A stretch of DNA of 64,000 nucleotides from Bacteriovoracaceae bacterium (GTDB taxonomy: Bacteria; Bdellovibrionota; UBA1018). Both the position numbers and the translations under genes were made by a program. Location of the stretch: the NCBI GenBank assembly GCA_947447665.1, contig CANFJX010000002.1, positions 209,659 through 273,658 on the forward strand. Direction: 5' to 3'. The notes below the pieces were generated by a model. The model had not been told where the DNA came from and made no database searches. It saw only the letters and a list, made by a program, of their open reading frames with translations. Below, one piece after another: positions 1-17,120 of the stretch. Within the stretch, counting starts at the first letter, position 1. The number at the start of each line of letters is the position of its first letter.

Positions 1-635
1 GCAGTTGATAGTGTTACTCCTTCGCGTACACAAGTCATCGCATCTTGAAGTGGGCGTCGCTCAGGTCGATGGTAGTGCACGTCGTTGGTAGCGATTACTT
101 TAAGATCCCATTCTCTCGCTTTTTTTAAAGTGAGCGCGGTACGTTCATCATCCATCCCGTCGAGATAGCGAGCCAGAGAGAGCGAGAATCGCTCCTCAAA
201 TGCGGTCTTGAGTGGTCCATACTGAAGTGATTTGGATGCTGGACAAGAGCCAAGCAAACCCTTGGACTCGGTTCTCTCTAAAAATTGAAGGAACTGCGCC
301 AGGGTAAGAATCCCATGACCTTTTTCTTTGCCCTGGTGAGCGGCAGTAAGAATGCGACACATAATTCCGTAAGCCGCGCGATCTCGGGCGATGAGTGAAA
401 TCGGTGGATGATCCTGGATTTTAAGTTCGCACCCGGAGATCAATCGAACTTGAGGAAACCGTCGGGTCGCCTCATAGGCTCGGGGTAAGGCATAGACTCC
501 GTTGAGATCCGTGATGGCGATAGCAGGGATTCCCATTTCAAATGCGCGCTGGATATATTCAGCTGCATCGGAAGCCCCGCGAAGGAAAGAGAAGTTAGTT
601 TTACACTGGAGTTCAACGTACGAGACCTTACTCAT
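1..635 (-). CDS. dnaE2: Error-prone DNA polymerase DnaE2/ImuC, N-terminal PHP domain (5' part only; the gene continues beyond the window start).
   Basis: Reverse-strand translation from the ATG at 635 gives MSKVSYVELQCKTNFSFLRGASDAAEYIQRAFEMGIPAIAITDLNGVYALP..., the hallmark N-terminus of DnaE-type PHP domains. It overlaps the imuB stop by 8 nt. It is absent from the ORF track because no stop codon falls inside the window. Confidence 0.8.
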   Translation of the reverse strand, partial: MSKVSYVELQCKTNFSFLRGASDAAEYIQRAFEMGIPAIAITDLNGVYALPRAYEATRRFPQVRLISGCELKIQDHPPISLIARDRAAYGIMCRILTAAHQGKEKGHGILTLAQFLQFLERTESKGLLGSCPASKSLQYGPLKTAFEERFSLSLARYLDGMDDERTALTLKKAREWDLKVIATNDVHYHRPERRPLQDAMTCVREGVTLST

Positions 636-1947
636 AGTAACCATGAACAAAATAGTGGTGTTGGGGATCTGAGAATATCCAAAGGGTGCGTCCACCTTCG
701 AGCTCGACTTGATAGTAGTTTCGAGCATGAGTATCGTTGAGCCAGTCGAGAGAGAGGCGCTCGAGTTTTGACCAGCAAATGGATTTAAATTTTCTCCCTT
801 TAAATAAAATTCTATCTTGAATAATAGAAACGGGAACAGGGGATTTAAAAATTCGGGTAGGTCGTTTTGGATAGCGATTTTCCAAGTCGGCTTGAGGAGC
901 TCCCTTTTGGGAACTTCTCACCCAACTCTTTTCTGGTAAGCGCTCCTCTGTCGTTCTTGCCCAAAAAACATGGTTCTTGCCTAGAAACTCCTCTAGCTCT
1001 CCAAAGAGAGAGCCTAGGACTTCTTGATGGTCTAAGTGGGAGTTTCCATCTTGATTGTTAAAGAAATCTTTTTGCGTGCTTCTTCCCGCTGTGGTCGCAA
1101 GGACAGAGCATCTCAATGTGTGAACAAAAGAGTGGATCGGTGCCTGGCTTAGATCTCGGTTCAGACGTTCGCGTAAGATCGGTAAGAAGCCGAGGGTTGA
1201 GCCCTGCGGGGTGATAAGCTCAAACGTCCACTCTCTTGTAGGGTTTTTCACGGTCGAGTATTTCTCAAGCTCTATTGCAAAAGAGATTCTCTCTGCTCGG
1301 AGTGATCGACCTCGGAGCCGACTAAAGAGTCGATCCAGCATGGCTTTAGAGTAAAACAGCAATGGCTCAATTTCGGAGCAGTACTCAGAAGGTAGAAGCT
1401 CGAGCTTTTCTTTAAAGTGCTCGGGCGGATTCCAGCTCGGCCAAAGCAGGTCGGAGGCACTTTCAAGTCTCTGTCGACACAAGAGACTGAGTCCCCCAAA
1501 TCGAGAAGGGAGACTGGCAGTGGGGATTTGTTTAAACTCGGACAGAGTCTCTACCCCGAGGCTTTTGAGTGATTCAATCATCACCCGAACCGATTTTCTC
1601 CCTAAGGGGTCCACGCCGAAAGGATCAGCAAAGTCGATGAGGGCCTCGATGGGGAGTGAATTGAGTGTTGATCCAGAAGCTCCTGAATGGCGCGCCAAGG
1701 CGAGAGATGAGGGGATGTCGTGGGAGAGTGCTATTTTTGCGACCCATCCCAGGCGACGAGCAAGAGACTGCGCTCGGAGAACAAAAGAGCGATCGGAGTA
1801 GAGCGATTTACACTTACCAATTTCAATGAAAATAGCCTCGGGCTCACGTACGGAGATTTGAGGACTGAATCTGAAACACGCTTCCGCAAGCGAGTATAGA
1901 CTCGACTGAGAACTCGACTCATGGAAAAAGAGGCAGGCCACTTTCAT
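628..1947 (-). CDS. imuB: ImuB, a Y-family polymerase-like mutasome subunit
   Basis: 439 aa. Y-family/DinB-like fold that lacks the canonical acidic catalytic N-terminus. It sits in the imuA-imuB-dnaE2 gene order and overlaps both neighbours. Confidence 0.7.
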   Translation of the reverse strand: MKVACLFFHESSSQSSLYSLAEACFRFSPQISVREPEAIFIEIGKCKSLYSDRSFVLRAQSLARRLGWVAKIALSHDIPSSLALARHSGASGSTLNSLPIEALIDFADPFGVDPLGRKSVRVMIESLKSLGVETLSEFKQIPTASLPSRFGGLSLLCRQRLESASDLLWPSWNPPEHFKEKLELLPSEYCSEIEPLLFYSKAMLDRLFSRLRGRSLRAERISFAIELEKYSTVKNPTREWTFELITPQGSTLGFLPILRERLNRDLSQAPIHSFVHTLRCSVLATTAGRSTQKDFFNNQDGNSHLDHQEVLGSLFGELEEFLGKNHVFWARTTEERLPEKSWVRSSQKGAPQADLENRYPKRPTRIFKSPVPVSIIQDRILFKGRKFKSICWSKLERLSLDWLNDTHARNYYQVELEGGRTLWIFSDPQHHYFVHGYYE

Positions 1948-2501
1948 GAGCTCTCCGATCGAGTGAACTTGGATTTAATCACTTCGACTGAGTAGGTGTG
2001 GACGCCTGGATGATTCCAATCCGCACTGAGCTGAAATGCAATAGCCCATGCATGCATCGGAACTTTCGATAGGAAAAAAACTGTCGCATTGGACTCTCGA
2101 GCAAAAAGTTGGAGGGCCTTGAGCATCTTAACTTCTTCAATCGCGCCGGGGAGCACGACACACTCGAAGAGTTTAGTTCTGAGCGCTTTCCTTAGTGCTT
2201 GAAATAATCGATCCCCTGCCTCTGCGATCAGAACTCGAGAAAGATCCACGCCTCGTTGCTGCATAGCAGTGGGGAGGATCGTGAGCTGCTCTTCGATCCA
2301 AAAAGTATGGAGTGATGGATTTTGCTGTAAGAGACGTAGAATCCACTCCGTACGCGCGGAGCCTGTGATCTCGCAAATGACACCACGAGGCACACCTCCG
2401 GGCACTGTGTCACAGTTTAAGAATTCTCTTTTTTGGATCCCATTCCATTGGGTCAGCTTCTCCCGAATTTCGGCAAGCTGGGGACGATCCTGTCTTTCCA
2501 T
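1944..2501 (-). CDS. imuA: ImuA/SulA-like protein (RecA-fold, lacks ATPase motifs), first gene of the mutasome cassette
   Basis: 185 aa. Position immediately upstream of imuB with a 4-bp overlap. RBS-like AGGGTGA lies upstream of the ATG. Confidence 0.55.
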   Translation of the reverse strand: MERQDRPQLAEIREKLTQWNGIQKREFLNCDTVPGGVPRGVICEITGSARTEWILRLLQQNPSLHTFWIEEQLTILPTAMQQRGVDLSRVLIAEAGDRLFQALRKALRTKLFECVVLPGAIEEVKMLKALQLFARESNATVFFLSKVPMHAWAIAFQLSADWNHPGVHTYSVEVIKSKFTRSESS

Positions 2502-3341: not shown

Positions 3342-3698
3342 TCATGCTATTTTTGAATCTACAGGAGCAATTCCATATCCATTTAAACTTGCGTCCACTA
3401 GATGGAATATCGCCGCATCCAAGTCTGCAAATGTTTGTCTCCAGTGCTTACCGCCTCGCTCCGACAAAAAGACTTCAAAACCATCGTCGCACTTCATTAG
3501 GTAGTATGCTTTTTTGTCTCTTGGATCGCCATGCCATATTTGGTCAATTAAGTCGGCTCCGTTTCCACCTAATTTCTTGTATTCGGCAATTAGCCCTTGA
3601 ATTGAAATCCTGTCCAAAACATTAGAGCCATATTTGCTAAGCAATTCTTTCTTTTGAAGTCCATTCAAGACATCGACTAATAGACAATTTTGATTCAT
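3342..3698 (-). CDS. Small acidic cytoplasmic protein (118 aa from the M10 start), candidate immunity or partner protein
   Basis: The ORF track gives 3342-3725. An internal ATG at 3698-3696 overlaps the upstream TAA stop as TAATG, and a GGAGG motif lies 6 nt upstream. No signal peptide. The protein has balanced composition, unlike the antisense ORF 3344-3625. Confidence 0.55.
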   Translation of the reverse strand: MNQNCLLVDVLNGLQKKELLSKYGSNVLDRISIQGLIAEYKKLGGNGADLIDQIWHGDPRDKKAYYLMKCDDGFEVFLSERGGKHWRQTFADLDAAIFHLVDASLNGYGIAPVDSKIA

Positions 3699-5884
3699 TA
3701 GAAACCTCCGCCGTTGGTGATCCATGTTCTAGGGACGATTTTATTTACGTAGACTTGATGCCCACCACCCAGAATTTGTCCAACGGGTGTTGGGTTGTTA
3801 AATCTTCTTAGCGCAACTTCACCAACAACGCCTTCATAGAATTTCTCACCTGATGGTACAGTAATTTCAACCCATTTTTTTGCCGAATTACCCCAAGAGG
3901 GGTCCAAAGCAGAATCAAGGACAGCTTGATAGGGACCAGTGGGCTTTACATGAGACCAGTAGGCTGATAGTTCTTTGCCGTCAGTTGCATACACTCGATA
4001 CAGCTTTACTGGCTCTTTCGTCACAATCTCCAGATAGCTAGAACTTCTAAAGGCATCCGCTACCGTTCCCACACCCTCGGTTATTGCGTGGAGTGGACCA
4101 TGATTTATTGGATTAAACTTCTGTATACTCGCCGCAGAATCTAGCATTCTCTGCACCCCTTCAATGCCCTCACTCCTGAGAAGGGTTGAGGCAAGGTCGG
4201 GGGCTTGATCCGCCAGAGCGTTCAGGTTGGTTGCCGCTGCCGCGGTCAGAGACCCTGCACTGTCAGCGGCTAAAACCATTTCTTGAGCTGCAAAGCGATG
4301 AACGACCAGTTCTACCCCTTTTTTGAGAGCGACCTGAGTCTCTGCGGCTAGGGGACATCCGAAAATCAATCCAGTGAGATCAGCCGTGAGTTCTCCGATG
4401 ATTTCGCCTTGTGTTTCCTCATCAGAGTGGATGAACGATTGCCATTTTTCTCGGATCAGGCCTTGAACTCCACTCTGAGATTCCGTAATTGCCTTAACTC
4501 CCTCATAAATGACGTAACCCACCGCTCCAGCTGCTAGGGTGACCGTAACGGCAGGAGGCAAAATAGCTGCTGCAACGACCCCCGCCCCAACGAGCACCCC
4601 TCCTCGAAGAGCTCCCCGGGTAAATCCCTTCAGAGCATCCAAACAGGGCCTTAGCTCCGATAGGGTGTGCTTGAAAGCTGCTGAATGGCCGCTAGCTCCT
4701 AAACGATCCGCCAATAATAAGCCCACTTTCAGACTCTCGGTATGAGAGTTGAAAAAAGAGCATCCCTCAGTATCAATTGCCCCTAGGCCAGGACACTGAT
4801 CTTGGACCATGCTCTGAGCCACGATCACTGTATTTACCGCGGTCCTCACCTCAAAACCCTCGGAGCTTCTGAGAGAAGTAGTCAGCCGAAGGCCCGTGTA
4901 ATCGACTCCGGGTAAATTGTGAATCAGCCCTTGATCATTCAGGATCCCGCGATCGATGAGTTGTTTTTCGATATAGTATCCGGAATTTTGGGTCACCCCA
5001 TCCTTGCTGTTTAGAAATGACTGAATTTCAGACAAAGCCTCTTCGACTGCGTCTAAATGTCTGGAACGATCCGCCCCGCTGAGAGCCTCCACTAACTGGG
5101 TTACGCTCTCATTGAGAATATCTTTAGGATGAGTCGCTCGTTTTGGGTCAAAGCCTCGAGCCTCCTGTTGCCAGACTGAAGCAGCTAAATTCGCTGCCTG
5201 TGGGCGCCGCTCTTGGACGATTTGCTGCTGCCGTTCTTCCATCCTGTTTGAAAATCGAAGGTCCCCGAAATCTCCGGAGGGTGTAACTCCCCGAGGTATT
5301 CCACTTCCGCCTAAGCCTGAGCCAACTGGGGTCAAACTCGCCTTGATGCCTTCTGTGTTTGCTCGTTGCACTCGGTTTAGCTCTCTACTCCAACCCTCAC
5401 GAGCAGCGTGGGAAGCTACTGCACCCCATCCCGAAGTGTCTTGGGACGGAGGCGAGATCATCCCTCCGGCAGGAGCATCTGTCGATCCTTCGTTCGTGGG
5501 CGCAGTTTGTGCTGGCAAACCTGGAGCTAGATCACGCAAATCAAAGCTGGCAGGGATATTCTGCCGCAGAGGGGTAGACTCCCCTGTATGCCGCGGAATT
5601 TGTGGGTTGGTCAGGCAATGACTAAAATAGTGTTCGACGGTGATCGCTCCTTCAACGGAGCGATGCTGAACCGACTGCTCCCAGCAAACCCGATCCACGC
5701 CTCGAAAATCTACGGTCCTTGGATCTTGGATGTATTCCTTATCCCCTCCCCTTTCGATAAAATATCGAATATCATCCTCGACGGCGTGAGAGGGCAGACT
5801 CGATAATCCGAATGCGAGCATCAAAATCGATGTAATTGACAGAGGTGTTCTACTCTTCATTTTTTTGTAAATTTTAGCTACCAT
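3698..5884 (-). CDS. Secreted 728-aa protein with a signal peptide, a central glycine-zipper segment and a C-terminal domain of unknown function
   Basis: N-terminus MKSRTPLSITSILMLAFGLSSLPSHA is Sec-like. The central segment GALRGGVLVGAGVVAAAILPPAVTVTLAAGAVGYVIY is a glycine zipper. The C-terminal ~130 aa (LYRVYATDGKELSAYWSH...GGGHQVYV) matches no family I can name. Confidence 0.65.
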   Translation of the reverse strand: MVAKIYKKMKSRTPLSITSILMLAFGLSSLPSHAVEDDIRYFIERGGDKEYIQDPRTVDFRGVDRVCWEQSVQHRSVEGAITVEHYFSHCLTNPQIPRHTGESTPLRQNIPASFDLRDLAPGLPAQTAPTNEGSTDAPAGGMISPPSQDTSGWGAVASHAAREGWSRELNRVQRANTEGIKASLTPVGSGLGGSGIPRGVTPSGDFGDLRFSNRMEERQQQIVQERRPQAANLAASVWQQEARGFDPKRATHPKDILNESVTQLVEALSGADRSRHLDAVEEALSEIQSFLNSKDGVTQNSGYYIEKQLIDRGILNDQGLIHNLPGVDYTGLRLTTSLRSSEGFEVRTAVNTVIVAQSMVQDQCPGLGAIDTEGCSFFNSHTESLKVGLLLADRLGASGHSAAFKHTLSELRPCLDALKGFTRGALRGGVLVGAGVVAAAILPPAVTVTLAAGAVGYVIYEGVKAITESQSGVQGLIREKWQSFIHSDEETQGEIIGELTADLTGLIFGCPLAAETQVALKKGVELVVHRFAAQEMVLAADSAGSLTAAAATNLNALADQAPDLASTLLRSEGIEGVQRMLDSAASIQKFNPINHGPLHAITEGVGTVADAFRSSSYLEIVTKEPVKLYRVYATDGKELSAYWSHVKPTGPYQAVLDSALDPSWGNSAKKWVEITVPSGEKFYEGVVGEVALRRFNNPTPVGQILGGGHQVYVNKIVPRTWITNGGGF

Positions 5885-5919: not shown

Positions 5920-6867
5920 CTACATCTGTGTTCTTGCAAAATTAATCCCATCTTCATGAATTCGATCTAACTCCTCTTGAGTCATAGGGATCACTCCTAA
6001 TAACCCAGGTTCGCCAACTACATTTTGGAGCATGGGCCTAATGGTCTCCCAATTCGGTAGTGGATCTGGCTTAAAATTCGCGTGGAAAGATAAGATTTCC
6101 CAATATTTCCTCCAAACGCGCTTGATTGGTGGGGGCGAGTTCGTATGGAATGCTGTGATTGCTGTCATTAGCAGTAAGTTGACTTCTCCCAATTCCTCAC
6201 GCTTCAAGACGGATGTTAGAATTTTAAAGTCATCCACCATTCCAGCAATGTTAAAACCGGCTCGACCTAAAAATTTTCCACATGCGACACCCCGTAATCC
6301 TGTTTCTGTTCCATCACCTCGGGTCGACCTAATTCTCTGCTCTGCCATTCTTCGGACCAGCCTAAAGTCATGGCGATTCATCCGCTCTCTCTCAAGAGAC
6401 TCTGTCCTTAGGTTCTCAAAACGGATTAATTGTTGAATCGCAGGCGCAATCTCAATTGAGCAATTTTGAAATTGCTCCAGATTAAAAACAAGTCCTTCGG
6501 CTCTTGGAATTGTGACCGCTTTTTCACCTCTAGGAACTCGTCGAACTAACTCGAAGTTCCTGATTTCATTTCTTAGAATTCCAAAATGCCGGTCTGTGTC
6601 TCTGATGAGAGTAGCGCTTCCTTCTTTCCCTTCAGACATCAGGTGACTGAAAGACTTTGTTTGAGGCGAGGCAGATGGGGCAGGATGGATCCTTTCCGAC
6701 AAAACGGTGCCAGAATTAAGGGCATCGACGGACAAACCCAGAATAAAATGATCTGGCTCAGACCTGAAGGTTAACTGTTCAGTCACAACGCGATCTGCGT
6801 AACTAGAAAAAGCCTCGCCGAACAAAACAGCAGAACACATTAAAAATCTATTCAAGCTTTTAATCAT
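5920..6867 (-). CDS. Secreted hypothetical protein (315 aa)
   Basis: N-terminal hydrophobic signal MIKSLNRFLMCSAVLFGEAFSSYA. Tightly packed in the operon. Confidence 0.55.
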   Translation of the reverse strand: MIKSLNRFLMCSAVLFGEAFSSYADRVVTEQLTFRSEPDHFILGLSVDALNSGTVLSERIHPAPSASPQTKSFSHLMSEGKEGSATLIRDTDRHFGILRNEIRNFELVRRVPRGEKAVTIPRAEGLVFNLEQFQNCSIEIAPAIQQLIRFENLRTESLERERMNRHDFRLVRRMAEQRIRSTRGDGTETGLRGVACGKFLGRAGFNIAGMVDDFKILTSVLKREELGEVNLLLMTAITAFHTNSPPPIKRVWRKYWEILSFHANFKPDPLPNWETIRPMLQNVVGEPGLLGVIPMTQEELDRIHEDGINFARTQM

Positions 6868-6883
6868 ATTAAAACAAATTCTT

Positions 6884-8182
6884 TCATTGCAAGGCTCTTC
6901 CGATAAGCGATGGTTTTAATGACTCCCATGGATCACTCGTCAATCGCGAAAACAATGCGTCGCCAATCACGAGGCTAGTCCAAAAATTCTGCAAAACACT
7001 ACCTCTGTCGATCACTGGTTCCCGAAGTTGAAAAAAATAGGGGGCAATCCCCTGTTTAATGAAAAGAAAAGATGCTCTACTTTCCTGCTGACGAATCGAA
7101 TATGACTTATCTAGTTCTGTGAGAACAGCGTCCTCAAGGTGTGGGAAGTAAGAGTCCTCTAAATCACTCATCAGCTCACTCCATCGATTTTTTAAACCTT
7201 GCCAATCTCCCTTGATACTTTCCACATAGGCTACTACCTGATTCAGGTGCTCCGAGTTGAGCTCCAGTGCAGCTTGAATCTTAGGTTCGAACTCAGGAAG
7301 CAAAAAATCTTCGCAAACCGCAGTAATCAGTAAAAGTGCGCCTTCATCGATTGCACTTATGGCGCGGATCTGGTGTTGTCGAATCTCCTGAATCAGCTCC
7401 CACTGACGGCTGATCTTGCCCGATTCGATTGCAGAATCAATCGAGCTCCAAACAGCTAGAACCGCAACAGCCACGACTGCGCCTACTGGTCCAGCTGCAG
7501 AAGTCGCGACCAAACCCTTCAGTACTCCAAGTTTGACTGCAGTACCAGCGGCGGCACCGGCGAGTGATCCGACAACACCCTTCGCATTGGTTCCGCCCTG
7601 AGAATGAGCCTCGCCTGCCGAATCTATTGAGATGGTGCAATCTTCTTGTGGAGGCAGAAGAGCAGCTAGATTAGGCAGTACAAAGATCTTCTTAGGTTGA
7701 TTGCGATCGAGAGCCCACTGCAATCGGTCGTTTGCGCATCGGGTTTTCCAAAATTCGGAGATTGAACTCAGATCGCTTCTCACGTTTCGAAGCGTAACAA
7801 GCTCATCTTCGAGATCTTTTTGGATGAGGAGTATTTTTAATACACTTTCGGAGAAAGATGCAGGTGTAGCCCGCATGATTTCTTGCATTTTTAGATCCCA
7901 ATTATTTTTGAGCTGCTCAGATTTATTTGAGGCAGTCTCTTGCATTTCTAACAGGATCTGAAAGGCGTCCCAGTAGTCGGATAACCGCTGTAAGAAATGG
8001 GTCTTAATATCTGATTTAAACTTTTTATCTACGTAATCCTTGTAGCTAACTTTGGTCTCATGGAGAATTTCTGATAAGAGCGTAATATTATCATCTAATT
8101 TGTCGGCAAAGGCAGGGGTAATTGTGTTGGAATTTAATGAAATACAAATAAAAATTGCGATTATTTTGTTTTTATTTTTCAT
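6884..8182 (-). CDS. Secreted coiled-coil and glycine-zipper protein (432 aa), paralogous in its central domain to the 728-aa protein
   Basis: Signal peptide MKNKNKIIAIFICISLNSNTITPAFA. The glycine zipper GVVGSLAGAAAGTAVKLGVLKGLVATSAAGPVGAVVAVAVLAV is followed by ESGKISRQWELIQEI, to be compared with ESQSGVQGLIREKWQSF in the 728-aa protein. Confidence 0.6.
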   Translation of the reverse strand: MKNKNKIIAIFICISLNSNTITPAFADKLDDNITLLSEILHETKVSYKDYVDKKFKSDIKTHFLQRLSDYWDAFQILLEMQETASNKSEQLKNNWDLKMQEIMRATPASFSESVLKILLIQKDLEDELVTLRNVRSDLSSISEFWKTRCANDRLQWALDRNQPKKIFVLPNLAALLPPQEDCTISIDSAGEAHSQGGTNAKGVVGSLAGAAAGTAVKLGVLKGLVATSAAGPVGAVVAVAVLAVWSSIDSAIESGKISRQWELIQEIRQHQIRAISAIDEGALLLITAVCEDFLLPEFEPKIQAALELNSEHLNQVVAYVESIKGDWQGLKNRWSELMSDLEDSYFPHLEDAVLTELDKSYSIRQQESRASFLFIKQGIAPYFFQLREPVIDRGSVLQNFWTSLVIGDALFSRLTSDPWESLKPSLIGRALQ

Positions 8183-8188
8183 ATTTTT

Positions 8189-10162
8189 TTAATTTCCAGC
8201 CAAACTCGTCAATACACTGAGGTGGAGAGATAATCTCTGAATTGCGTCCTCTGGAGTAATCATTTTAAAACCGGTAATCACAGATGCGGGTGATACTAAT
8301 GCGGAATTGGGAATCAATTTCCTAACCTTTTCGATTTCGACTGTTTTCTGGTTTAAAAATAAAATATCAAAATTGGCATAAGCTGATTGGATAGCGATTA
8401 AATCTCCGAAAATTTTATCGAACCAGCCAAAAATATGAAAAAACCGGGATGAATGAGTCCGATCTAAAGCAACTCTTTCTGGATTTGGAGCCACCAGATC
8501 CGGAGATATGACTTCGGATCTGACATGATCTGGAACGGTTGAGTTGTAGCTTGGAAAGATATCATACTTAGCTTTTATGTTTTTAGGATCTCTCAAATCA
8601 GGATTGCCCAAGCAGACTGGGATCTCGAAATGACTTGTAAAATTAATAATTTGATCTTTAAGTCCTTCAGTTGCCTTGTTGTATTTTAAGCACTTTTGGA
8701 GTGATTGATGGAGACTCGATTTAAAAAAACTATCCACCTCGAACAGAGAGTCCTCCAATTGCTTTTTGATCAGCGTCAGATCGGGATGCGCATGATTAAT
8801 CTCTCGCATTGCCTCTAAAAGGGGTTCGGCTACCTGCAACAATTGATCACGCGAAACCACCGCACCTGGGACGTTTTCCTGTTCAGTAAGTGGCCGGACC
8901 AAGTGGCGGTCCCAAGCTTCAATCAAGGCTGCTCCCCGGGCCAGGAGGATGGGATTAATCTCCTCTGCAAGAAATTGAAGCTCTCCCGTAAAGATGTCAT
9001 CACTGTCTTTCCGAGAGAACAAATGGGTGATGCTTTCAGAAACGAGGAGCCGGAGAATCCGAGACCAGTGAAACTGAAACCAACTTCGAGCCACGTCAGT
9101 TCTCATCTGCTCCAACTCGTAAAAGTCTCGCACTACGGACCCTCGAGTTAACTCGAAACCCGCATCAAGGAAATTTTGATAGTATTCGTAATTTCCTGGC
9201 ACGGAAGGTCCAGGAGTACCGGACGGTCCTACCCCTAAACTCGAAGGGCTCGGGGTGCTAGAATCCACCTGACCACAGGCTCCTGGGCCCAGCTTCTTCG
9301 TGCCAAGGACTCGCCAACAAGAATCGCCGTCACCCCCTTGGCCAGGCCTTCCCTCGTCGCCCACTGGACCGCCTTCGCCTCCTGCTCCGCCTAATCCGGG
9401 AGAAGATTTTACGAAATTTAGCTGGAGCTCGCTTACGGTCTTTTTGGAAGTGAGAAAAACAATCGGAACTGAGCCACCACCCTTGCCTCCTGGGCCACCT
9501 TGGCCTCCCTGGCCTCTTTGTCCTGAATCGCCCCCATGGCCTGCTTCCCAGCTCCAAACAAGCCCAACCCAAGCCTTCTCGCCTCGGCCACCGGCGCCAC
9601 CGGTGCCACCCTTTCCACCGGTGCCACCTTGACCGCCTTTTTGTCCAGTTCCATCAATCGTTGGAGTTCCGATGACTTCAGCCGCAAAGACCAAAATCGG
9701 ACTTGGGGAGGCCTTTGCTGAAGGTCCAGTATATCCTGTGGCTCCAGTCCCTCCTACTCCCCCCTTTTCTCCATCATGCGTGCGCTCGCTTGATACATTC
9801 CTACAGGAATCACATCCAGTGGATCCTTGAACACCCACTGCAGGCATCAAATGGTTCCGCGCCATGGGGAGAGAATAAGCCTTAATCGTCGCGCCAGCCT
9901 TAAACTCAAGTCTGCGGGTATCGATCAGGAGCTGATGGCCCCGAGTCACAATGGTCCCATTAATGATGACTTCATCCGCTTTGATAACCGTGGGACCGGT
10001 CAAAACGTAAACTGGATTTCCCAATGTGACTCGATCATGCGACCTTCTCATTGCGCCTGAAAAATCTTCGAATTCGCTGGGGGGTGGCAGCTCAACACAC
10101 AACGCTTGATGTACCATTGTGAACCAAGCGCACGCCACCGTCCAAACGCTGAATTTACTCAC
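8189..10162 (-). CDS. Secreted bacterial collagen-like protein (657 aa): N-terminal beta-rich segment, several interrupted (G-X-Y)n runs, C-terminal helical domain
   Basis: Runs such as GEKGGVGGTGATGYTGPS, GQKGGQGGTGGKGGTGGAGGRGEK and GLGGAGGEGGPVGDEGRPGQGGDG keep Gly at every third position. The 8-bp start/stop overlap with the upstream gene is another sign of operon packing. Confidence 0.65.
   Translation of the reverse strand: MSKFSVWTVACAWFTMVHQALCVELPPPSEFEDFSGAMRRSHDRVTLGNPVYVLTGPTVIKADEVIINGTIVTRGHQLLIDTRRLEFKAGATIKAYSLPMARNHLMPAVGVQGSTGCDSCRNVSSERTHDGEKGGVGGTGATGYTGPSAKASPSPILVFAAEVIGTPTIDGTGQKGGQGGTGGKGGTGGAGGRGEKAWVGLVWSWEAGHGGDSGQRGQGGQGGPGGKGGGSVPIVFLTSKKTVSELQLNFVKSSPGLGGAGGEGGPVGDEGRPGQGGDGDSCWRVLGTKKLGPGACGQVDSSTPSPSSLGVGPSGTPGPSVPGNYEYYQNFLDAGFELTRGSVVRDFYELEQMRTDVARSWFQFHWSRILRLLVSESITHLFSRKDSDDIFTGELQFLAEEINPILLARGAALIEAWDRHLVRPLTEQENVPGAVVSRDQLLQVAEPLLEAMREINHAHPDLTLIKKQLEDSLFEVDSFFKSSLHQSLQKCLKYNKATEGLKDQIINFTSHFEIPVCLGNPDLRDPKNIKAKYDIFPSYNSTVPDHVRSEVISPDLVAPNPERVALDRTHSSRFFHIFGWFDKIFGDLIAIQSAYANFDILFLNQKTVEIEKVRKLIPNSALVSPASVITGFKMITPEDAIQRLSLHLSVLTSLAGN
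9170..9780 (-). repeat. Low-complexity GGN/ACC-rich coding repeats, e.g. ccaccggtgccacc units, that encode the collagen-like G-X-Y tracts
   Basis: The visible reiteration of ccaccggcgccaccggtgccaccctttccaccggtgccacc gives rise to spurious Pro-rich antisense ORFs. Confidence 0.6.
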
Positions 10163-12515
10163 TTTCGATCTCCTCTTGATTCTGGCTAAAACTGCCTAAG
10201 TCGCCCTTGGGTCCATCCGGATTCACAGGCCCTAGGGTTCCTGCTGGCAGCTCGAAGCTCCGCGTTTTAACTTGGGGTAAGATTTGGTGATCTAACAGGT
10301 CCTTGGCAGCTATTTGTTCCTGAAGAGCAAGAAGGGCTTGCTCGGCACGCGCACGAATACAATCTAAATTGATTCCTGGGCAAACTCGATTGAGTTTTTG
10401 AGCCTGTTGCGTGGGAGAGAGGTAGCTAAAGTCTTCCTTGATAAACACTTGAATTGTCGGATCCGTCTCAGACTTTCGTGTAGCCGACTCAAACAGGAGG
10501 CGTAGGTCATGAATAGATGGATTGTCTAAAAAATGATCGCCACTAGCGGTCGAAGCCTCAGCAGATCGCGATAAACTCCATCGCCTAGTAAATTGAATAA
10601 AAGTAGCTAAATCCAAGTCCGTAGCGTCGCCATCACCACCTCGTCGCGCAGGCACGGCCCTTTGTCCTGAACCACCTTGGCTCTCTAAGATAGGAAAAAA
10701 ATTCACTCGGGGCGCCTGGTCTGCCCCTCCAGGCCCAGGTCTCAATCTTACCCTGAGGCTACCACCAGAATAACCTTTCAAGGCTTTCGCAAGAGCAGCT
10801 CGACCCGGTTGGGCTTCTTTTTCGATCACATGGAGAACAAAATAATAGGTTCCCTGGCCCCTGGAGAAATCAGGATGGTTCACCTGGAAACCTACGATCA
10901 ACGGAAACGTGATCGCAGCATCTTCTTTTAGGGGACTCTCTGCGGGCAAGTCCGGATGCTTTAGGGCTGAGCTCAGATCAAATAAGGATCCATCGATTTG
11001 TGTAGTCACCCAATCTAAGCTCACATCAGGAGCGATGATAGCAGAGTCAAACGGCATATTCACTGTGGGTGTCTCTAGTTCAACCCGGGTCGGACCGACC
11101 GCTCCGTCAACAAAAGTGCAACCGCGCTCTTCTATTAGATGGGCTAAGTCTGCGGCATTTCCGACTGAAATTCTCCTTGAGGGAATACCAGCAGCATCCA
11201 GCGCACCACAAAACGATTGAATGGAAGCAGTCGTTGGGTGGAGATAGGCATTCAGTCGAAAGGTTAAAATTCGGTCAAGCAGAGTCAAGCTTGCAGGGAC
11301 CGGTAAAACGGGGACAGAGGCTAGTTCAGGAAATGCTACACTGGGCATGACTCGCTGAATTCTCAGTCGAAACCACATTGCATCCAACGATTGATGCGTA
11401 TATCCGCTGGGTAAGCTCTCCAAAAACTCAGAAATCGGCTGATTACTTCTCTGTAGTTCAGTCTCATAGCGTCGGTACAAGTCCTCAATCCAAGCAAGAG
11501 CGTGAACTGATGAATGGACAGGACTCAGTTTTCTCTCGATCTCTCGCAAGTCCATAAGTAAATTCCATCCCAGTCGAAGTTTGGAATATACCTGCTCTTT
11601 TTCAGTAGGTTCTCTTCCTCGATTCTGGAGTAGTTCAGAAAAAAAGGCCTGCTTCAGTCGATCGAGAAATTCGTTCAGTTGATCTTGTCTTAGGTTTAGA
11701 AAAATAGACTCGCTCGAACTCATGAAAAGTTGTATTAAATTGGAGAATCTAAATTTATTCAAAAGTAAGTTAAATGTTTCTGGGCTTTTAATGATGGAAT
11801 CAAGAGTCCTGTTTAGAAAATGAACATGCCCCAATTTTTTTAGATGAAATTGGACCAGTGAAATGACAAGAGAACTATTAGGGTTCTCTTCGGAAAGCAG
11901 GGACTCGACTACTTTTTGCCAAGTTGGAGCTGAAAAAATTCCAATCAACTCTCGCCAGTTAAGATTTTGATTCAGCTTTGATTCTTCAGTCAATAATTCT
12001 GCCAAATAGGTGGAATTCTCAAGAAGATCGATTGGATCCTGTTGACGGACTAATTGAGTGTTCAGCTCGGATAGAATTGCGCTCAGCGCATCAGGTGATA
12101 GAGGCGTGGTACATTTCTTAAGTGGCTTTAATAAGTAAGCTAGACCGTGAGCATGAGTGCGAGCAACCTCTCCAAAGGATTGGAAATGCTCGATTTGGCA
12201 AGAAATCGAATGTAATTGAAAAAGTTTATCTCGATTGTCGGGCTCAAGCTGGTCTAAAATATTTCTACTTAGAACCTCGCCCCAGAACTTAGACCACCCA
12301 AAGTCTGCTGGAATACTTTTTTTAATTCTGTCTAATGCTTGTGATCTCTCTTGGTTATTGGAGGCTTTTCTTAAAATATAGATTGCAGTATCTGCATTGA
12401 ATGTAGGGTGCACGCTGACGCCAACTAAGCCACGGCTGCAGCTAGTGGCAAAAAAAAGCGTTAGAACACATGGATAAATCAGCTGAAACAATGTAGTTTT
12501 TAAATCCATTTTCAT
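10155..12515 (-). CDS. Large secreted or lipoprotein-like hypothetical protein (786 aa), first gene of the operon
   Basis: N-terminus MKMDLKTTLFQLIYPCVLTLFFATSCS is a signal peptide with a possible lipobox. The rest is mostly helical with no recognisable catalytic motif. Confidence 0.6.
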   Translation of the reverse strand: MKMDLKTTLFQLIYPCVLTLFFATSCSRGLVGVSVHPTFNADTAIYILRKASNNQERSQALDRIKKSIPADFGWSKFWGEVLSRNILDQLEPDNRDKLFQLHSISCQIEHFQSFGEVARTHAHGLAYLLKPLKKCTTPLSPDALSAILSELNTQLVRQQDPIDLLENSTYLAELLTEESKLNQNLNWRELIGIFSAPTWQKVVESLLSEENPNSSLVISLVQFHLKKLGHVHFLNRTLDSIIKSPETFNLLLNKFRFSNLIQLFMSSSESIFLNLRQDQLNEFLDRLKQAFFSELLQNRGREPTEKEQVYSKLRLGWNLLMDLREIERKLSPVHSSVHALAWIEDLYRRYETELQRSNQPISEFLESLPSGYTHQSLDAMWFRLRIQRVMPSVAFPELASVPVLPVPASLTLLDRILTFRLNAYLHPTTASIQSFCGALDAAGIPSRRISVGNAADLAHLIEERGCTFVDGAVGPTRVELETPTVNMPFDSAIIAPDVSLDWVTTQIDGSLFDLSSALKHPDLPAESPLKEDAAITFPLIVGFQVNHPDFSRGQGTYYFVLHVIEKEAQPGRAALAKALKGYSGGSLRVRLRPGPGGADQAPRVNFFPILESQGGSGQRAVPARRGGDGDATDLDLATFIQFTRRWSLSRSAEASTASGDHFLDNPSIHDLRLLFESATRKSETDPTIQVFIKEDFSYLSPTQQAQKLNRVCPGINLDCIRARAEQALLALQEQIAAKDLLDHQILPQVKTRSFELPAGTLGPVNPDGPKGDLGSFSQNQEEIESE

Positions 12516-12596: not shown

Positions 12597-13304
12597 ATGA
12601 GAATTTTTAAACGAATTAATTCGAGTGAAAGCATGAAGATTTTTATTTTCATAATATTTTGCACCATTCTTGGTCCAGTAGTCCAAGCCGAAGACCTACC
12701 TGTTGCAATTAATTTAAACGAAGAGATTCCACAGAAGCTGATCTATGGCGATGTTTTTATTGGGCAAAGCATTGAACCTAACCAGCATAAACTTAACTCT
12801 TACATTCAGTATAGTTCAGGTACTAACAGTCCCCAGTACTCGCTCACAGGTGCTAATTTAGGTTCAGATTATTGGCTTCTAAATTCACTTATGGTTGGTA
12901 TGAGTCTAAATTACTATTCAAGTTCTCCACTTTTACTTCAAGAAGTTCTCAGTAATGAACTCCGACTCAATGCAGTTTCACTTAAATATTACAGCCCAAA
13001 ATTCGGAATCTACGCCCATTTGGGGTATGTCCCACTTCAGGGGATCTTCAATCTATTTGAGAAGTTTGTAATTAAATCGAGTCTCATTGTGGGACTCGGT
13101 TTAGGGACGACCCAATATAGTGATCACGCATTTTATCCAGGCATAAAGATCTTTATCGAAGAAAGACTCCTTCTCTACAAAACATTTGGAATTAGCTTGG
13201 GTATTACGCATTTCTGGGAAGGAAACCATCCTCAACTGGAATCTCAAAATACTCATTGGTTAAGCAGGGATCAAGTGGTTTCGGGGGTCTACCTTGAACT
13301 CTAG
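12597..13304 (+). CDS. Small secreted protein, probably an outer-membrane beta-barrel (235 aa; the start may be the internal Met at 12633)
   Basis: Signal peptide MKIFIFIIFCTILGPVVQA. Alternating hydrophobic pattern. It is divergent from the secreted operon across an AT-rich intergenic region. Confidence 0.5.
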   Translation: MRIFKRINSSESMKIFIFIIFCTILGPVVQAEDLPVAINLNEEIPQKLIYGDVFIGQSIEPNQHKLNSYIQYSSGTNSPQYSLTGANLGSDYWLLNSLMVGMSLNYYSSSPLLLQEVLSNELRLNAVSLKYYSPKFGIYAHLGYVPLQGIFNLFEKFVIKSSLIVGLGLGTTQYSDHAFYPGIKIFIEERLLLYKTFGISLGITHFWEGNHPQLESQNTHWLSRDQVVSGVYLEL

Positions 13305-13818
13305 AATTAAAACCACTTTAACCTTAGGGCTGACTGCATTCTTTCTTCTCGGGGCGCTAGACGGCTTTTCCTCCCAAGAAAGGGCCAACTTAGACCTGGG
13401 TCGCCTCATGAATGCCCAAAAGAAAAGCTACCTAGAAAGGAATTGGGATGCATTTTTTGGGACTGCTCAAGTGTATCGGCTCGCTTGGTGGAACGAGGTT
13501 CCATCCGTGACGCTGATCGCCCTCGAAGCTCTGGCGCTCGCTCGTCATTGCCGATATGCAGAGGCTGAATTGCTCATTGCCACCTTGGGTTCTCATTCAA
13601 GCGCCCGACGTGGTGAAACGGAGGCCATCCAGCAAGTCAAACACCTTCTGACTTCTGTTAAAAAGTTAGGCATCCAGGCACAAGAGAATTCCTCTCTCCA
13701 TATCTCGTCGAGAGCTAATCCCGAAGTATTTTGGCCGATCCAAAACTTATCACTTTGGAAGCGTTTACCGCCCACTTCCTTCCGTGTGCATATGGAGAGT
13801 AAATGTCGTTTAGAATGA
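13294..13818 (+). CDS. Secreted helical-repeat (TPR-like) protein, 174 aa
   Basis: Signal peptide MNSRIKTTLTLGLTAFFLLGALDG. Overlaps both neighbours. Confidence 0.5.
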   Translation: MNSRIKTTLTLGLTAFFLLGALDGFSSQERANLDLGRLMNAQKKSYLERNWDAFFGTAQVYRLAWWNEVPSVTLIALEALALARHCRYAEAELLIATLGSHSSARRGETEAIQQVKHLLTSVKKLGIQAQENSSLHISSRANPEVFWPIQNLSLWKRLPPTSFRVHMESKCRLE

Positions 13819-15773
13819 ATCTCATTCGATTGGCTCCTCTAGTGTTCGGCGCCTTTTCTCCGGCCTGGGGAGTCGCTCTCCCTTCGGTGGATGACGTCCG
13901 CCCTCCGGTCAAGGCGTCAGACACGATCTCATCAGCTTCCGCCCTTCTGGCGGCAGGGGAGCCAGAGCAGGCGATTACCATTTTAAGGGCGATTTTTTCT
14001 TCCAAAAGGGCAGGAGACATTCGGTTTAATGCGGCTCTTCTTTTGGCTTCATTTGGCCCAGGCACGAGTGCCTTCCCTGATCGTGCCGTTTATGCAGAAT
14101 TTGTTCTGAGTCATCCTCTGGCTGTCAGCAGGTTAAAAAATTCAGATCGAATTCGACTCCTCAGGAGCGCAGGACTCGGTTGGTTTAGTTTGGCGAGATG
14201 GCCCGAGGCCTCCCTCTCGTTCGAAAAGCTGCGGAACCTCGGAGGACCTGACGATGGCTCCCTCTCCGAGCTTCATCTCGGCTGGATTGAGTTGAACCAA
14301 AAGAATCCAAAGCTAGCTCTGCAGCGTTGGTTAAGTTTTCTCGGTCATCACCAGCATGAGGTCGATCAACCATGGGGACCCACGCTCATCCGGGACCTGG
14401 GTCATGTCTGGATTGAAGCTGGAGGGTTCCCGCCCGAGGTTGGTGAGCAAATCGACCGACTCATCCAAAGTCATGATGAACTCAAATATTTCCGGGAGGG
14501 GATGTCACAAGGACTAGGTTTGATTCCTTTGGATTCTCCCACATGGGCCAGTTTTCGGGGCTCAGCATTAAAAACTCGTATGAGTCGCCACCTAGCGGAT
14601 TTACTCCTCAAAAACCCTGAGGCAATCGAGTCACATCCCTGTGAAATCTTAGACTGGATCAAGCAGGACGGCTCCATCGGAGGCGGCGAAACTCAGGGTC
14701 AATTATTTGTCTCGCTCCAGAACTGCTTAAAGTCCCCTGGGATTACCGAAGGGGAAAATCGCAAAGTACTACTCACTTTATTGCATCCATGGATGTCTCA
14801 CCTCAGGAAGAGCTCGGGCATTTCGATTGAGGATCGGAGATTCGCTCTTCTTCATATTTTTTATCTTCAAAATGAACCAGACCTCAAAAAGAGGCAGGAG
14901 TGGTTAGAGAAATTTTACCCCAGCCCATCGGAAGTCAAAATCCTTAAGAATGGCCCAGTAGCTCTCCTGTGGTTGGAGGTTCTGCAAAGGCGCGCACATG
15001 ACGAAGATACTTCAATGATCAGAAAGTCATGGATTGATAATTTTTTAGAGAATCCGAGTCAATTTGAATTTGTACCCATACCTCCAGATGACCTCACACT
15101 CATTGCCTTGCAAATCAGTCAACAAGAACAAGTTTGGCTCCCGATCTGGAATTATCTCAATCGACTTGGGACAAAGATTTTCACTTCAGAAAGGGTTTTG
15201 GGATCACTTCACGTTTGGCTAACTAGCTTCATTTCACGTGCATTCTTGGACGGAAGCCTTCCGCCTGAGCCGTCAGTTGAATCGATTACTCAACCCTATT
15301 TTAATATCGTTCGATTTTTTATCTATTTGGAAAATCAATTTAACCAAAGTTTACAGCCCAGTGTTGAGTCTGACTTAGTTGGAGCATCCTGCCTAAAGGA
15401 TCATCTTAACGCTCAATTTAACACTCAATCTAGTCCGATATTTTCGGCCTACCATAGTACACGCGATGGCATAACTAGTTTAAAATCTGCATTAAAAATA
15501 AAAATCAAATTAGAATCTTCGCACTTCTTTAGCGACTTAAAAAAGCAAATAAGTTTCATCAAAAGTGGCTCATTATTTCTAAGAAAGGCTGGAATTTTAT
15601 TTCCGCCTGTCAAGCAAACCATGGCGAAAGTGTCAAATCTATATATTGACTCAATTCGATCTAACATTCAAGCGATAGAAGCACCCAATGAGTGGTCAGT
15701 GCCTGATCAAGAATCTTGGCGTGCCCAAAGGAAGCAGATTGCAGATGGCCTAAACGAGTGGAGAGCTGAATGA
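13803..15773 (+). CDS. Secreted 656-aa protein with an N-terminal TPR-like region
   Basis: Signal peptide MSFRMNLIRLAPLVFGAFSPAWG. The helical-repeat N-terminus includes AITILRAIFSSKRAGDIRFNAALLLASFG. Confidence 0.55.
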   Translation: MSFRMNLIRLAPLVFGAFSPAWGVALPSVDDVRPPVKASDTISSASALLAAGEPEQAITILRAIFSSKRAGDIRFNAALLLASFGPGTSAFPDRAVYAEFVLSHPLAVSRLKNSDRIRLLRSAGLGWFSLARWPEASLSFEKLRNLGGPDDGSLSELHLGWIELNQKNPKLALQRWLSFLGHHQHEVDQPWGPTLIRDLGHVWIEAGGFPPEVGEQIDRLIQSHDELKYFREGMSQGLGLIPLDSPTWASFRGSALKTRMSRHLADLLLKNPEAIESHPCEILDWIKQDGSIGGGETQGQLFVSLQNCLKSPGITEGENRKVLLTLLHPWMSHLRKSSGISIEDRRFALLHIFYLQNEPDLKKRQEWLEKFYPSPSEVKILKNGPVALLWLEVLQRRAHDEDTSMIRKSWIDNFLENPSQFEFVPIPPDDLTLIALQISQQEQVWLPIWNYLNRLGTKIFTSERVLGSLHVWLTSFISRAFLDGSLPPEPSVESITQPYFNIVRFFIYLENQFNQSLQPSVESDLVGASCLKDHLNAQFNTQSSPIFSAYHSTRDGITSLKSALKIKIKLESSHFFSDLKKQISFIKSGSLFLRKAGILFPPVKQTMAKVSNLYIDSIRSNIQAIEAPNEWSVPDQESWRAQRKQIADGLNEWRAE

Positions 15774-16036
15774 AAATTCTATCGAAAATGGCGATTATTT
15801 TCGTACTTTTTGTCTGCACAGCTGGACTGGTAATCCAAACCAAGGCTCAACCGCCTCAAGAAGAGGTTGACCTAGGGATCCTATCGGTTGAAGGCAGCAT
15901 TCGCTACCCAAGTTTCCAGGTGATCGAAAACCCTGAAACCCTCAGGAAGGTAACTCGCGAAGCATTGGGCCGTGAGCTGACTAGAATTGAGGAAGAAGTA
16001 CTCAGGTCTTGCGGGAGTGAAAATGAAACTGAATAG
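15770..16036 (+). CDS. Small secreted protein (88 aa)
   Basis: ATGA overlap with the upstream gene. Hydrophobic N-terminus MKILSKMAIIFVLFVCTAGLVIQT. Confidence 0.4.
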   Translation: MKILSKMAIIFVLFVCTAGLVIQTKAQPPQEEVDLGILSVEGSIRYPSFQVIENPETLRKVTREALGRELTRIEEEVLRSCGSENETE

Positions 16037-17120
16037 CCTTACTCAGATCTTTGCTCCCTGCCAAATTAGGGATAACCTTCGACTGAGCGTGGTGCCGCAG
16101 TCATTACTCCAGTCTCCCCCTCCCTTCGAGGCGAAGATGTCTCGAAACGGGCTTGAGATCCAGATCAAATCTTCTGACTCCCTTAAGGTCGTCAAAGCTG
16201 GGGTCGTCATTTATGACGGTAGACAGCTGATTTTTGAATCTAATTCTAATTTTCGAATTTTTGGAAGTTACGAGGACACTCTCGTGATTTCAAATCACTT
16301 CGGAGACTCATGGACTGTGTCGTTTAAATACGAAATGGCTTCGCCAGATGACCAGCAAGCGGGGATGTTTGCAAAATCATTTTTCGAGTCAGGCATGGCA
16401 CATTTGCTCCTCGTGATCCTGATAGCAGGGGCAATTTACGCCCAGAGCATACCCCTCCAACGATCGTCACCTCTCGACTCATCTTTAGGCCTCCGAATAG
16501 AAAGTAGAAATTCTGAGGCACCTTTAATTACATTTACGCCGTTTTCTGGGATGAGTCTGCGTGAATTTGAAATGCCAGAGTCATCGGAGCATTCAAATAC
16601 GAAGCGGACGTTTCAGCCTTTGAAGGCCCTTGGAAAAACGGCCTCATTTCTCAAATCATTCTTCGGCGGGAAGGCGAATCAGGCCCTCGAGATTACGTCA
16701 GGCCGATCCGCTTTGAGTGCAGTCGAGACAGCAAAAATTGACACCAGTCGACTGCTCGAGTCCACCCTAAAAAGGGACAACAGAATAGCCGGGGGCTCCG
16801 AGCAATTGGCAGCTCGAGCTAAGTCAAACGAACGAGAAAATAAATTAAGGCAAAAACTAGAGTCACTCAAACCAAAATTGACTGAAGCATTCGATCAAGC
16901 GGTTCGAATGGATCCGGCATTTTCTGTGAGTGTAACTATCGAGGGCTTGGTAAATAGTCGTGGACGGCTGTCCAGCGTCGAGCTCAAGTCTAGAGGTCAT
17001 TCTACTCCCCTGGCGCTAGCTGCCTTCGAAAGGCAAATCAGAAATATTCTTGAATCAGTAGAAATAGGCAATGAATTCTCAGGGCTCAAGTTACGAACGG
17101 AACATGTTTTTATCAAGTAG
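15987..17120 (+). CDS. TonB C-terminal-domain protein with atypical topology: about 125 aa come before the single TM helix (the start may be the ATG at 16023)
   Basis: TM segment MAHLLLVILIAGAIYAQSI at about residue 125. The C-terminus SVSVTIEGLVNSRGRLSSVELKSRGHSTPLALAAFERQIRNILESVEIG resembles the TonB-C fold signature. ExbB and ExbD genes lie directly downstream. Confidence 0.55.
   Translation: MRKKYSGLAGVKMKLNSLTQIFAPCQIRDNLRLSVVPQSLLQSPPPFEAKMSRNGLEIQIKSSDSLKVVKAGVVIYDGRQLIFESNSNFRIFGSYEDTLVISNHFGDSWTVSFKYEMASPDDQQAGMFAKSFFESGMAHLLLVILIAGAIYAQSIPLQRSSPLDSSLGLRIESRNSEAPLITFTPFSGMSLREFEMPESSEHSNTKRTFQPLKALGKTASFLKSFFGGKANQALEITSGRSALSAVETAKIDTSRLLESTLKRDNRIAGGSEQLAARAKSNERENKLRQKLESLKPKLTEAFDQAVRMDPAFSVSVTIEGLVNSRGRLSSVELKSRGHSTPLALAAFERQIRNILESVEIGNEFSGLKLRTEHVFIK

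Follow-up and report, generated by a model that had tools for sequence, protein, structure and literature searches.

Are a 728-residue, apparently exported protein and the 118-residue protein encoded directly behind it a toxin and its immunity protein, and if so, by which chemistry would the toxin act? The question was raised by a 64,000-nucleotide (nt) stretch of DNA from a Bacteriovoracaceae bacterium of the Bdellovibrionota (assembly GCA_947447665.1, contig CANFJX010000002.1, positions 209,659 to 273,658), here called the window, in which an earlier reading of the letters alone (the sequence-only reading) had proposed such a pair. The two genes, tox728 and imm118, very probably form a toxin/immunity pair, judging from their arrangement and that of their homologues. 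The fuller explanation, in which a Sec-exported carrier bears an NAD(P)+ glycohydrolase (NADase)-type toxin tip that is neutralised by imm118, was given a probability of about 0.7. The two genes and the toxin module are located as follows.

3698..5884, minus strand: toxin gene tox728, 728 amino acids (aa), including the TAA stop at 3698..3700 (open reading frame (ORF) list and sequence).
3701..4165, minus strand: C-terminal toxin module of tox728, residues 574–728, with a predicted ADP-ribosyltransferase (ART)-like fold of the TNT/Tne NADase type.
3342..3698, minus strand: immunity gene imm118, 118 aa, including the TGA stop at 3342..3344.

The toxin/immunity layout of the sequence-only reading was supported by a modular C-terminal tip, by the strict downstream linkage of the imm118 family and by orphan immunity loci. 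Both genes were encoded on the minus strand; the coordinates given earlier were correct and had carried no strand.

The C-terminal residues 580–728 (149 aa) were used as the query of a HMMER scan against 1.84 billion cluster representatives (clusters at 50% identity). The scan matched 836 proteins with E values ≤ 1e-3, 568 with E values ≤ 1e-10 and 38 with E values ≤ 1e-30, so that the module family contained at least 836 clusters. A sensitive search of the full library was needed to reveal the family; a word-indexed search with the whole of tox728 was insufficient and returned the protein itself and a 1066-aa metagenomic protein, P0002, which matched residues 589–685 alone. Domain positions and residue conservation were counted over 158 domain instances in the 150 best matching proteins. 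The module ended at most 9 residues from the protein C-terminus in 148 of the 158 instances, and the preceding region varied from 0 to 3314 aa.

The sequence-only reading had suggested looking for the C-terminal domain behind other N-termini, and it was found there. In a Pfam scan of 111 of these proteins, the carriers comprised RHS proteins with PT-HINT, CdiA-like proteins with TPS, Fil_haemagg and DUF637 domains, PT-TG proteins (~40 of the 111), and proteins with a T7SS_signal domain. No Pfam domain was detected on the tail itself in any of the 111 proteins. The closest tail, that of the PT-TG protein P0005, was 72% identical over residues 574–728 and its upstream part was unrelated, which placed a sharp homology boundary at residue 574. 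Module exchange was therefore seen in both directions: P0005 shares the tail only, while a 908-aa protein of a Bdellovibrionia metagenome-assembled genome (MAG; locus L001) shares part of the carrier and has a different tail. The domain was thus distinct, as had been claimed; the claimed length of about 130 aa was too short, since the conserved module spanned about 140–155 aa (residues ~574–728). No further copies of the toxin or immunity module were found in the window.

The actinobacterial-type member P0002 was found in a different setting. At its locus (L003, 10001..15301) it adjoined a 245-aa protein with an eCIS_core domain (PF13699), and this protein and neighbouring ORFs shared an LQ..AGN.AV motif. 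The arrangement suggests that, in the P0002 lineage, delivery of the same toxin tip relies on an extracellular contractile injection system.

The immunity gene was joined to the toxin gene by an overlapping junction with two elements.

3705..3709, minus strand: GGAGG Shine-Dalgarno sequence of imm118, built from the terminal Gly codons of tox728 (read from the sequence).
3696..3700, minus strand: TAATG stop/start overlap, indicative of translational coupling (read from the sequence).

The C-terminus of tox728 was PRTWITNGGGF followed by TAA, and the minus-strand junction read ggc GGA GGt ttc TAATG. The GGAGG at 3709..3705 was separated from the ATG at 3698..3696 by the 6-nt spacer TTTCTA, whose last two bases are the first bases of the stop, and the ATG shared its A with the TAA stop (3700..3698). 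The 728-aa protein ending in NGGGF, the Shine-Dalgarno sequence from its last Gly codons 6 nt before the overlapping start, and the 118-aa ORF opened by TAATG had all been described correctly, and gene calls of exactly 728 aa and 118 aa were present in public assemblies. All 11 related junctions had an overlapping stop/start (TAATG, TGATG or ATGA) after a GGAGG-like Shine-Dalgarno sequence made of Gly codons. Because both elements were kept in every one of the 11, the arrangement is not due to chance. The toxin family had a conserved tail, W-x-x-x-G-G-G-x-F, whose Gly codons doubled as the imm118 Shine-Dalgarno sequence (window 3701..3715, minus strand; L001, L004, L007 and L011–16). The toxin tail and the ribosome-binding site are thus dual-coded and have been conserved jointly.

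When 5.8 billion clusters were searched with a profile, the imm118 family came to 14 clusters, 106–127 aa long and all unnamed, from MAGs of Bdellovibrionales, Oligoflexales and Bacteriovoracaceae and from metagenomes. The reading frame was kept open down to 18–38% identity, and the same position and overlap were kept in 11 loci; the conservation on which the sequence-only reading had made itself depend was therefore present. imm118 contained 16 Asp/Glu and 14 Lys/Arg residues (net charge –2), so that its earlier description as acidic was overstated and holds marginally. A Kyte-Doolittle scan of imm118 found no hydrophobic 19-mer, in agreement with the claimed lack of a signal peptide. The protein ends in a conserved D-[ST]-K-I tail that includes the basic residue K116; in Tni2 a basic residue, Arg153, enters the active site of the toxin. 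The C-terminal ~150 residues of tox728 and imm118, each predicted alone with AlphaFold2 (AF2), both gave confident models. The imm118 model had a predicted local distance difference test (pLDDT) value of 89.2 and a predicted template modelling (pTM) value of 0.84. It showed no likeness in sequence or fold to the known NADase immunity families Tsi6, Tni2, IFT and RhsI1, and its predicted fold is without a known relative.

Homologues of imm118 were located directly 3' of the module in every readable locus (L001/L002, L004, L007, L008, L011–13, L014, L015 and L016). The loci with a full module and an imm118 gene were L004 (374-aa toxin), L007, L008, L014, where the module stands alone with 144 aa, and L015, whose toxin is a PT-TG protein. 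Distant members of the module family were paired with other small proteins, namely an ~88-aa family at L003 and at L009 and, at L005, a CpXC-like zinc-ribbon protein of 233 aa. These unrelated partners of distant tips represent the usual diversification of immunity proteins, and the small gene directly downstream co-varied with the toxin tip. At L008 (6431..7252), in a Bacteriovoracaceae MAG, two tandem divergent imm118-like genes of 127 aa each, ~90% similar to one another, followed a single PT-TG toxin, an immunity duplication.

In three independent contexts, the toxin tip was truncated or frameshifted and the imm118-family gene behind it was intact. The L001/L002 tip started at residue ~644 and carried a frameshift, and its DPSWG motif had lost the conserved Trp codon to a TGA; the immunity gene was intact, 63% identical to imm118, and retained the TAATG overlap with the stop of the remnant. 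At L011–13, module residues 87–149 alone remained beside an IS66 transposase, and at L016 residues 35–149 remained. Orphan tips, as known from polymorphic toxin systems, were thus found in the relatives and not in the window. That the small gene was kept while the toxin decayed agrees with the prediction for an immunity role and not with that for a chaperone. The IS66-family transposase gene lay ~130 bp upstream of the remnant tip (L011 656..2273, L012 2327..3944 and L013 496..2113), and the arrangement of IS66, tip remnant and intact immunity gene was found on at least 14 metagenomic contigs. At L016 (558..2452), five small co-directional ORFs (127, 139, 118, 108 and 124 aa), ending with the truncated tip and the imm118-family gene, are possibly an orphan cassette or a poly-immunity array.

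The locus resembled the polymorphic toxin systems with PT-TG, RHS, CdiA or LXG carriers (Zhang et al. 2012, PMC3482391) in four respects: its C-terminal toxin is exchangeable and sharply bounded, its immunity gene follows directly downstream, its relatives include orphan tips that are truncated although the immunity gene beside them is intact, and the tip is reused behind carriers specific to particular secretion systems. It differed in its carrier, in which no trafficking or pre-toxin domain was recognised. In the surveys of polymorphic toxins that were searched, the tail had neither a name nor a motif that matched it, an absence that is no proof that the family is unnamed.

The chemistry of the tip was approached through its predicted structure. 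An AF2 model of residues 580–728, built with a 37-sequence alignment, had a pLDDT of 83.8 and a pTM of 0.77 and showed an ART-like palm-domain fold. In a Foldseek search, Tne2 was ranked first (E value 4.7e-3, probability 1.00, template modelling scores 0.52/0.63), followed by Tse6. The five best structural matches were all NADases, with Z scores well above that of any transferase. They can be counted so because PDB entry 6xtd is the Rhs1-CT domain of Serratia Db10, an experimentally demonstrated NAD(P)+ glycohydrolase (PMC10539506). The conserved residues of the module were the following.

3995..3997, minus strand: codon of R630 in the LYR motif, an Arg in strand β1 of the model that may bind NAD, conserved in 157/158.
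3953..3958, minus strand: codons of W643 and S644 (YW[ST] motif), the aromatic residue (Trp in 154/158) and the Ser/Thr (156/158) of an R-[ST]-Q pattern.
3914..3928, minus strand: codons Q653 to D657 (GPxQxxxD helix), a near-invariant polar pair (Gln 157/158, Asp 157/158).
3755..3757, minus strand: codon of Q710 in the GGGxQ motif, a Gln that lies 18 residues before the C-terminus and may be catalytic, conserved in 156/156.

The motifs of the family were TFRSxSY, LYRVY, YW[ST]R, GPxQxxxDxAL, WGN and GGGxQ. TNT-type NADases share the palm fold, a strictly conserved Gln ~20 residues before the end of the domain, and an upstream Arg and aromatic residue (PMC10539506). The comparison set contained M. 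tuberculosis TNT (the CpnT C-terminus, PDB 4QLP, PF14021), A. fumigatus AfNADase, Serratia Rhs1-CT Db10 (Tne3), Rhs1-CT 1036 (Tne4) and P. aeruginosa Tse6 (Tne1). The conserved Gln is Q822 in TNT, Q194 in AfNADase and Q1452 in Rhs1-CT; the upstream Arg and aromatic residue are R757 and Y765 in TNT, and Rhs1-CT also has a Gln-Asp-Gln cluster. The candidate counterparts in tox728 were a conserved Gln near the end of the domain (Q710) and an upstream Arg (R630) and aromatic residue (Y642/W643). Arg, aromatic residue and Gln followed one another in the TNT-type order (R630 157/158, W643 154/158, Q710 156/156), an order read along the sequence and not from a superposition on Tne2 or TNT. R630 may be equivalent to TNT R757 and AfNADase R129, and Q653 and D657 may have their counterpart in the Gln/Asp/Gln cluster that Serratia Rhs1-CT has. 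The Arg and Gln were separated by 80 residues in tox728, 69 in members without a variable loop, and 65 in TNT and AfNADase. The distance from the Gln to the C-terminus was 18 residues for Q710 and ~21–24 in Rhs1-CT and TNT, as counted from published residue numbers.

The residue pattern is read as R-[ST]-Q, and by predicted fold and residue analogy the module is probably an NAD(P)+ glycohydrolase; hydrolysis of NAD(P)+ is the chemistry that we favour for it, with some reserve. The assignment draws on the predicted structure and the residue analogy because the module had no sequence-level link to a described Tne or TNT family. At the sequence level it belonged neither to Pfam TNT (PF14021) nor to the Tne families represented in the PDB, a comparison made with the structures in the library, among which Tne5 had none.

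The strongest alternative is an ART-fold toxin that moves ADP-ribose onto a macromolecule (protein, rRNA/tRNA or DNA), with imm118 still acting as its immunity factor. The sequence-only reading had noted a loose resemblance to R/S/E ADP-ribosyltransferases, with atypical spacing; of this pattern R630 and S/T644 were present and the catalytic Glu was not, its place being taken by the invariant Q710. The R-[ST]-x pattern resembles the R-S-E clade as defined in PMC3482391, in that R630 and S/T644 matched the β1 Arg and β2 Ser/Thr of Tox-ART-RSE, and E684, the Glu of the YEG motif, was kept in 87% of members. However, the β5 catalytic Glu (ExE/QxE) of this clade was not matched, since the third motif position was a Gln in 156/156 members, as in TNT, AfNADase and Rhs1-CT, and the tip residues differed from the signatures of Tox-ART-RSE, Tox-ART-PARP, Tox-ART-HYE1, Tox-ART-HYD1 and Tox-ART-HYD2 (PMC3482391). 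E684 itself was ruled out as the catalytic residue by its conservation, being replaced in 20/158 members, by Arg, Val, Gln or Leu in some of them. No Pfam ART model matched, and the five best structural matches were, as noted, all NADases. A transferase is an unlikely alternative, though the most probable of the three.

Several observations weigh against the NADase toxin reading as a whole. Proteins of the ART fold switch between hydrolase and transferase chemistry, so that the fold alone does not decide, and with its 87% conservation E684 could still matter. When the profile of alignment A1 was compared with all PDB sequences, no Tne, TNT or ART protein was found at E values ≤ 10, and no Pfam or NCBIfam model, TNT included, matched any of 37 members of the module family. 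A Pfam and NCBIfam scan of residues 1–573 found no trafficking or pre-toxin domain that would account for delivery into another cell. The GC content was 0.459 in the C-terminal module and 0.398 in imm118, against 0.523 in the carrier part; the lower value of the cassette is compatible with cassette exchange and not decisive, and the difference was modest (7.6th percentile of windows).

Among described systems, the nearest structural match was Tne2-Tni2 of Pseudomonas protegens (PDB 6B12), a type VI secretion system (T6SS) NAD(P)+ glycohydrolase with its immunity protein. Both pairs have the toxin as the C-terminal module of a larger secreted protein and a cytoplasmic immunity gene directly downstream. 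In contrast, the modules were 13% identical in the structural alignment, with no detectable sequence similarity, and the carriers differed, Tne2 having a PAAR/T6SS carrier and tox728 a Sec signal with a lineage-specific region. As in the TNT-type NADases, the immunity proteins were unrelated from family to family; unlike these enzymes, the module was matched by the Pfam TNT model in 0/37 members, and the context of its motifs was family-specific. By architecture, and very probably by function, tox728/imm118 is a polymorphic toxin system, and it would be closest in working to the Tne/TNT NADase effector-immunity pairs. The kind of system is well known, whereas the sequence family is new, as are the immunity protein and the carrier.

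The N-terminal part of tox728 contained three features.

5783..5884, minus strand: Sec-type signal peptide, residues 1–34, with a basic n-region, a hydrophobic core and a cleavage-like site after SHA and before V (by inspection of the translation).
4595..4966, minus strand: part of the carrier with a detectable relative, residues 307–430 (BLASTP against the L001 908-aa protein).
4508..4615, minus strand: Gly/Ala/Val-rich hydrophobic stretch, residues 424–459 (Kyte-Doolittle scan).

The N-terminus, MVAKIYKKMKSRTPLSITSILMLAFGLSSLPSHA followed by VEDD, looks by inspection like a Sec signal, in line with the earlier claim that the protein is secreted. No part of the carrier other than residues 307–430 had a detectable relative; this was the 908-aa protein from the Bdellovibrionia MAG, at 27% identity over 124 aa (E value 5e-10). 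Residues 424–459 were the only stretch of tox728 with 19-mers at a Kyte-Doolittle value of at least 1.6, and would be a candidate segment for membrane insertion or translocation. The 908-aa protein (L001 1400..4398) differed from tox728 both in its C-terminal tail and in its small downstream gene. Its tail (IYRIGT...FWS...GGGIEVVV) showed an R...S...E pattern by eye and was followed by its own 86–89-aa ORF; the two might be another toxin/immunity pair, ART-like and of the Glu type. With its GGGIE motif this tail was considered as a member of the module family, and it was rejected, since, although alike by eye, it had no detectable membership in the same sequence family.

In the favoured explanation, tox728 would be exported through Sec by its N-terminal signal, and its lineage-specific N-terminal ~570 residues would serve as the carrier, the long hydrophobic stretch possibly aiding the crossing of the target membrane. 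The last ~150 residues would act as the exchangeable toxin module with the TNT/Tne-type ADP-ribosyltransferase-like palm fold. R630, together with the aromatic Y642/W643, would most likely bind NAD(P)+, and the invariant Q710, aided by Q653 and D657, would position the nicotinamide ribose. Hydrolysis to nicotinamide and ADP-ribose would deplete the cofactor in the cytoplasm of the putative target cell, and growth would stop. imm118, which has no signal peptide, would be made in fixed proportion to the toxin through translational coupling; it would bind the module in the cytoplasm of the producer and neutralise it, probably by occluding the active-site cleft.

The second alternative is a non-antagonistic one, in which the large protein is a secreted enzyme of predation or nutrient scavenging and the product of the small gene serves it as a chaperone or in assembly, or has nothing to do with it. 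It agrees with a carrier that has a Sec signal only and no recognised interbacterial delivery domain, with an operon shared with four other uncharacterised proteins that bear signals by inspection, and with nearest relatives that are MAGs of Bdellovibrionota/Oligoflexia, a group that includes predatory bacteria. Nevertheless, the same module tips RHS, CdiA-like and T7SS-signal proteins, which are dedicated carriers of interbacterial toxins; the small genes stayed intact beside a decayed toxin in three contexts, which is unexpected for the chaperone of a lost partner; and other members paired with unrelated small downstream genes, as is typical of immunity diversification. This alternative is improbable, well below the transferase. 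Last, although short ORFs and GGAGG motifs in Gly codons can occur by chance and no library names the 118-aa protein, the idea that it is a chance frame with a coincidental TAATG/GGAGG is effectively refuted by the conservation of length, open frame, position and overlap across the 14 clusters and 11 loci and by the confident model.

The pair closed an operon on the minus strand with the order p786, p657, p432, p315, tox728 and imm118 and with gaps or overlaps of –8 to +35 nt. The products of the four upstream genes (window 5920..12515, minus strand) had signal-like N-termini by inspection. None of the four had a family assignment in Pfam or NCBIfam, and Pfam, NCBIfam and PDB sequence searches with these four, tox728 and imm118 gave no meaningful match. 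p657 contained a Gly-rich region of GGxGG repeats, and p432 had a Gly/Ala/Val-rich hydrophobic stretch (residues 223–253) similar to residues 424–459 of tox728. Homologues of p657 and p432 adjoined the closest relative, L001/L002, alone and not the PT-TG-type loci. A reading of the upstream proteins as a conserved delivery apparatus is therefore speculative, and a part of theirs in delivery is no more than possible.

The flanking genes that were scanned were housekeeping genes (succinate dehydrogenase, ExbB/MotA and an ImuA-like gene), and no genes of the type V, VI or VII secretion systems were among them. Promoter and terminator scans gave sites that were no more frequent than in shuffled sequence. 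The ImuA-like gene (1944..2501, minus strand; NCBIfam ImuA_translesion, E value 2.8e-8, below the curated cutoff) overlapped the start of a 439-aa ORF without a family match, and the two (window 628..2501, minus strand) may form an imuA-imuB mutagenesis cassette. On the plus strand, running away from the toxin operon, four consecutive ORFs (235, 174, 656 and 377 aa; window 12597..17120) had no Pfam match and were followed by the ExbB/MotA-family gene at 17151..17795.

Toxins that deplete NAD+ rank among the most potent weapons between bacteria, and with every new family another immunity protein and further details of catalysis have come to light. The list of Tne-like families is still growing, Tne5 having been added in 2026. 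It may be proposed, quite tentatively, that the tail represents a sixth TNT/Tne-like family of NAD(P)+ glycohydrolases, large and as yet without a name (at least 836 clusters on RHS, CdiA, PT-TG and T7SS carriers), with an immunity protein of new fold and with a Sec-dependent carrier in Bdellovibrionota/Oligoflexia-like bacteria that uses no known contact-dependent secretion system. The delivery route of such a family might involve the hydrophobic segment 424–459 and the co-transcribed p315, p432, p657 and p786. If this were so, the toxin would be a weapon in competition between such bacteria or for the killing of prey, and the question is raised of how a protein of a Bdellovibrionota-like organism with a Sec signal only brings a toxin that acts in the cytoplasm into another cell.

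The module is widespread and yet was missed by Pfam, by NCBIfam and by sequence searches of solved structures, and annotation therefore calls such proteins hypothetical. A profile of TFRSxSY...LYR...YW[ST]R...GPxQxxxD...GGGxQ would allow hundreds of RHS, CdiA and PT-TG toxins to be annotated. In this family, the conserved Gly-Gly-Gly-x-Phe codons are at the same time the ribosome-binding site of the immunity gene, a dual coding that ties the synthesis of the antidote to that of the toxin.

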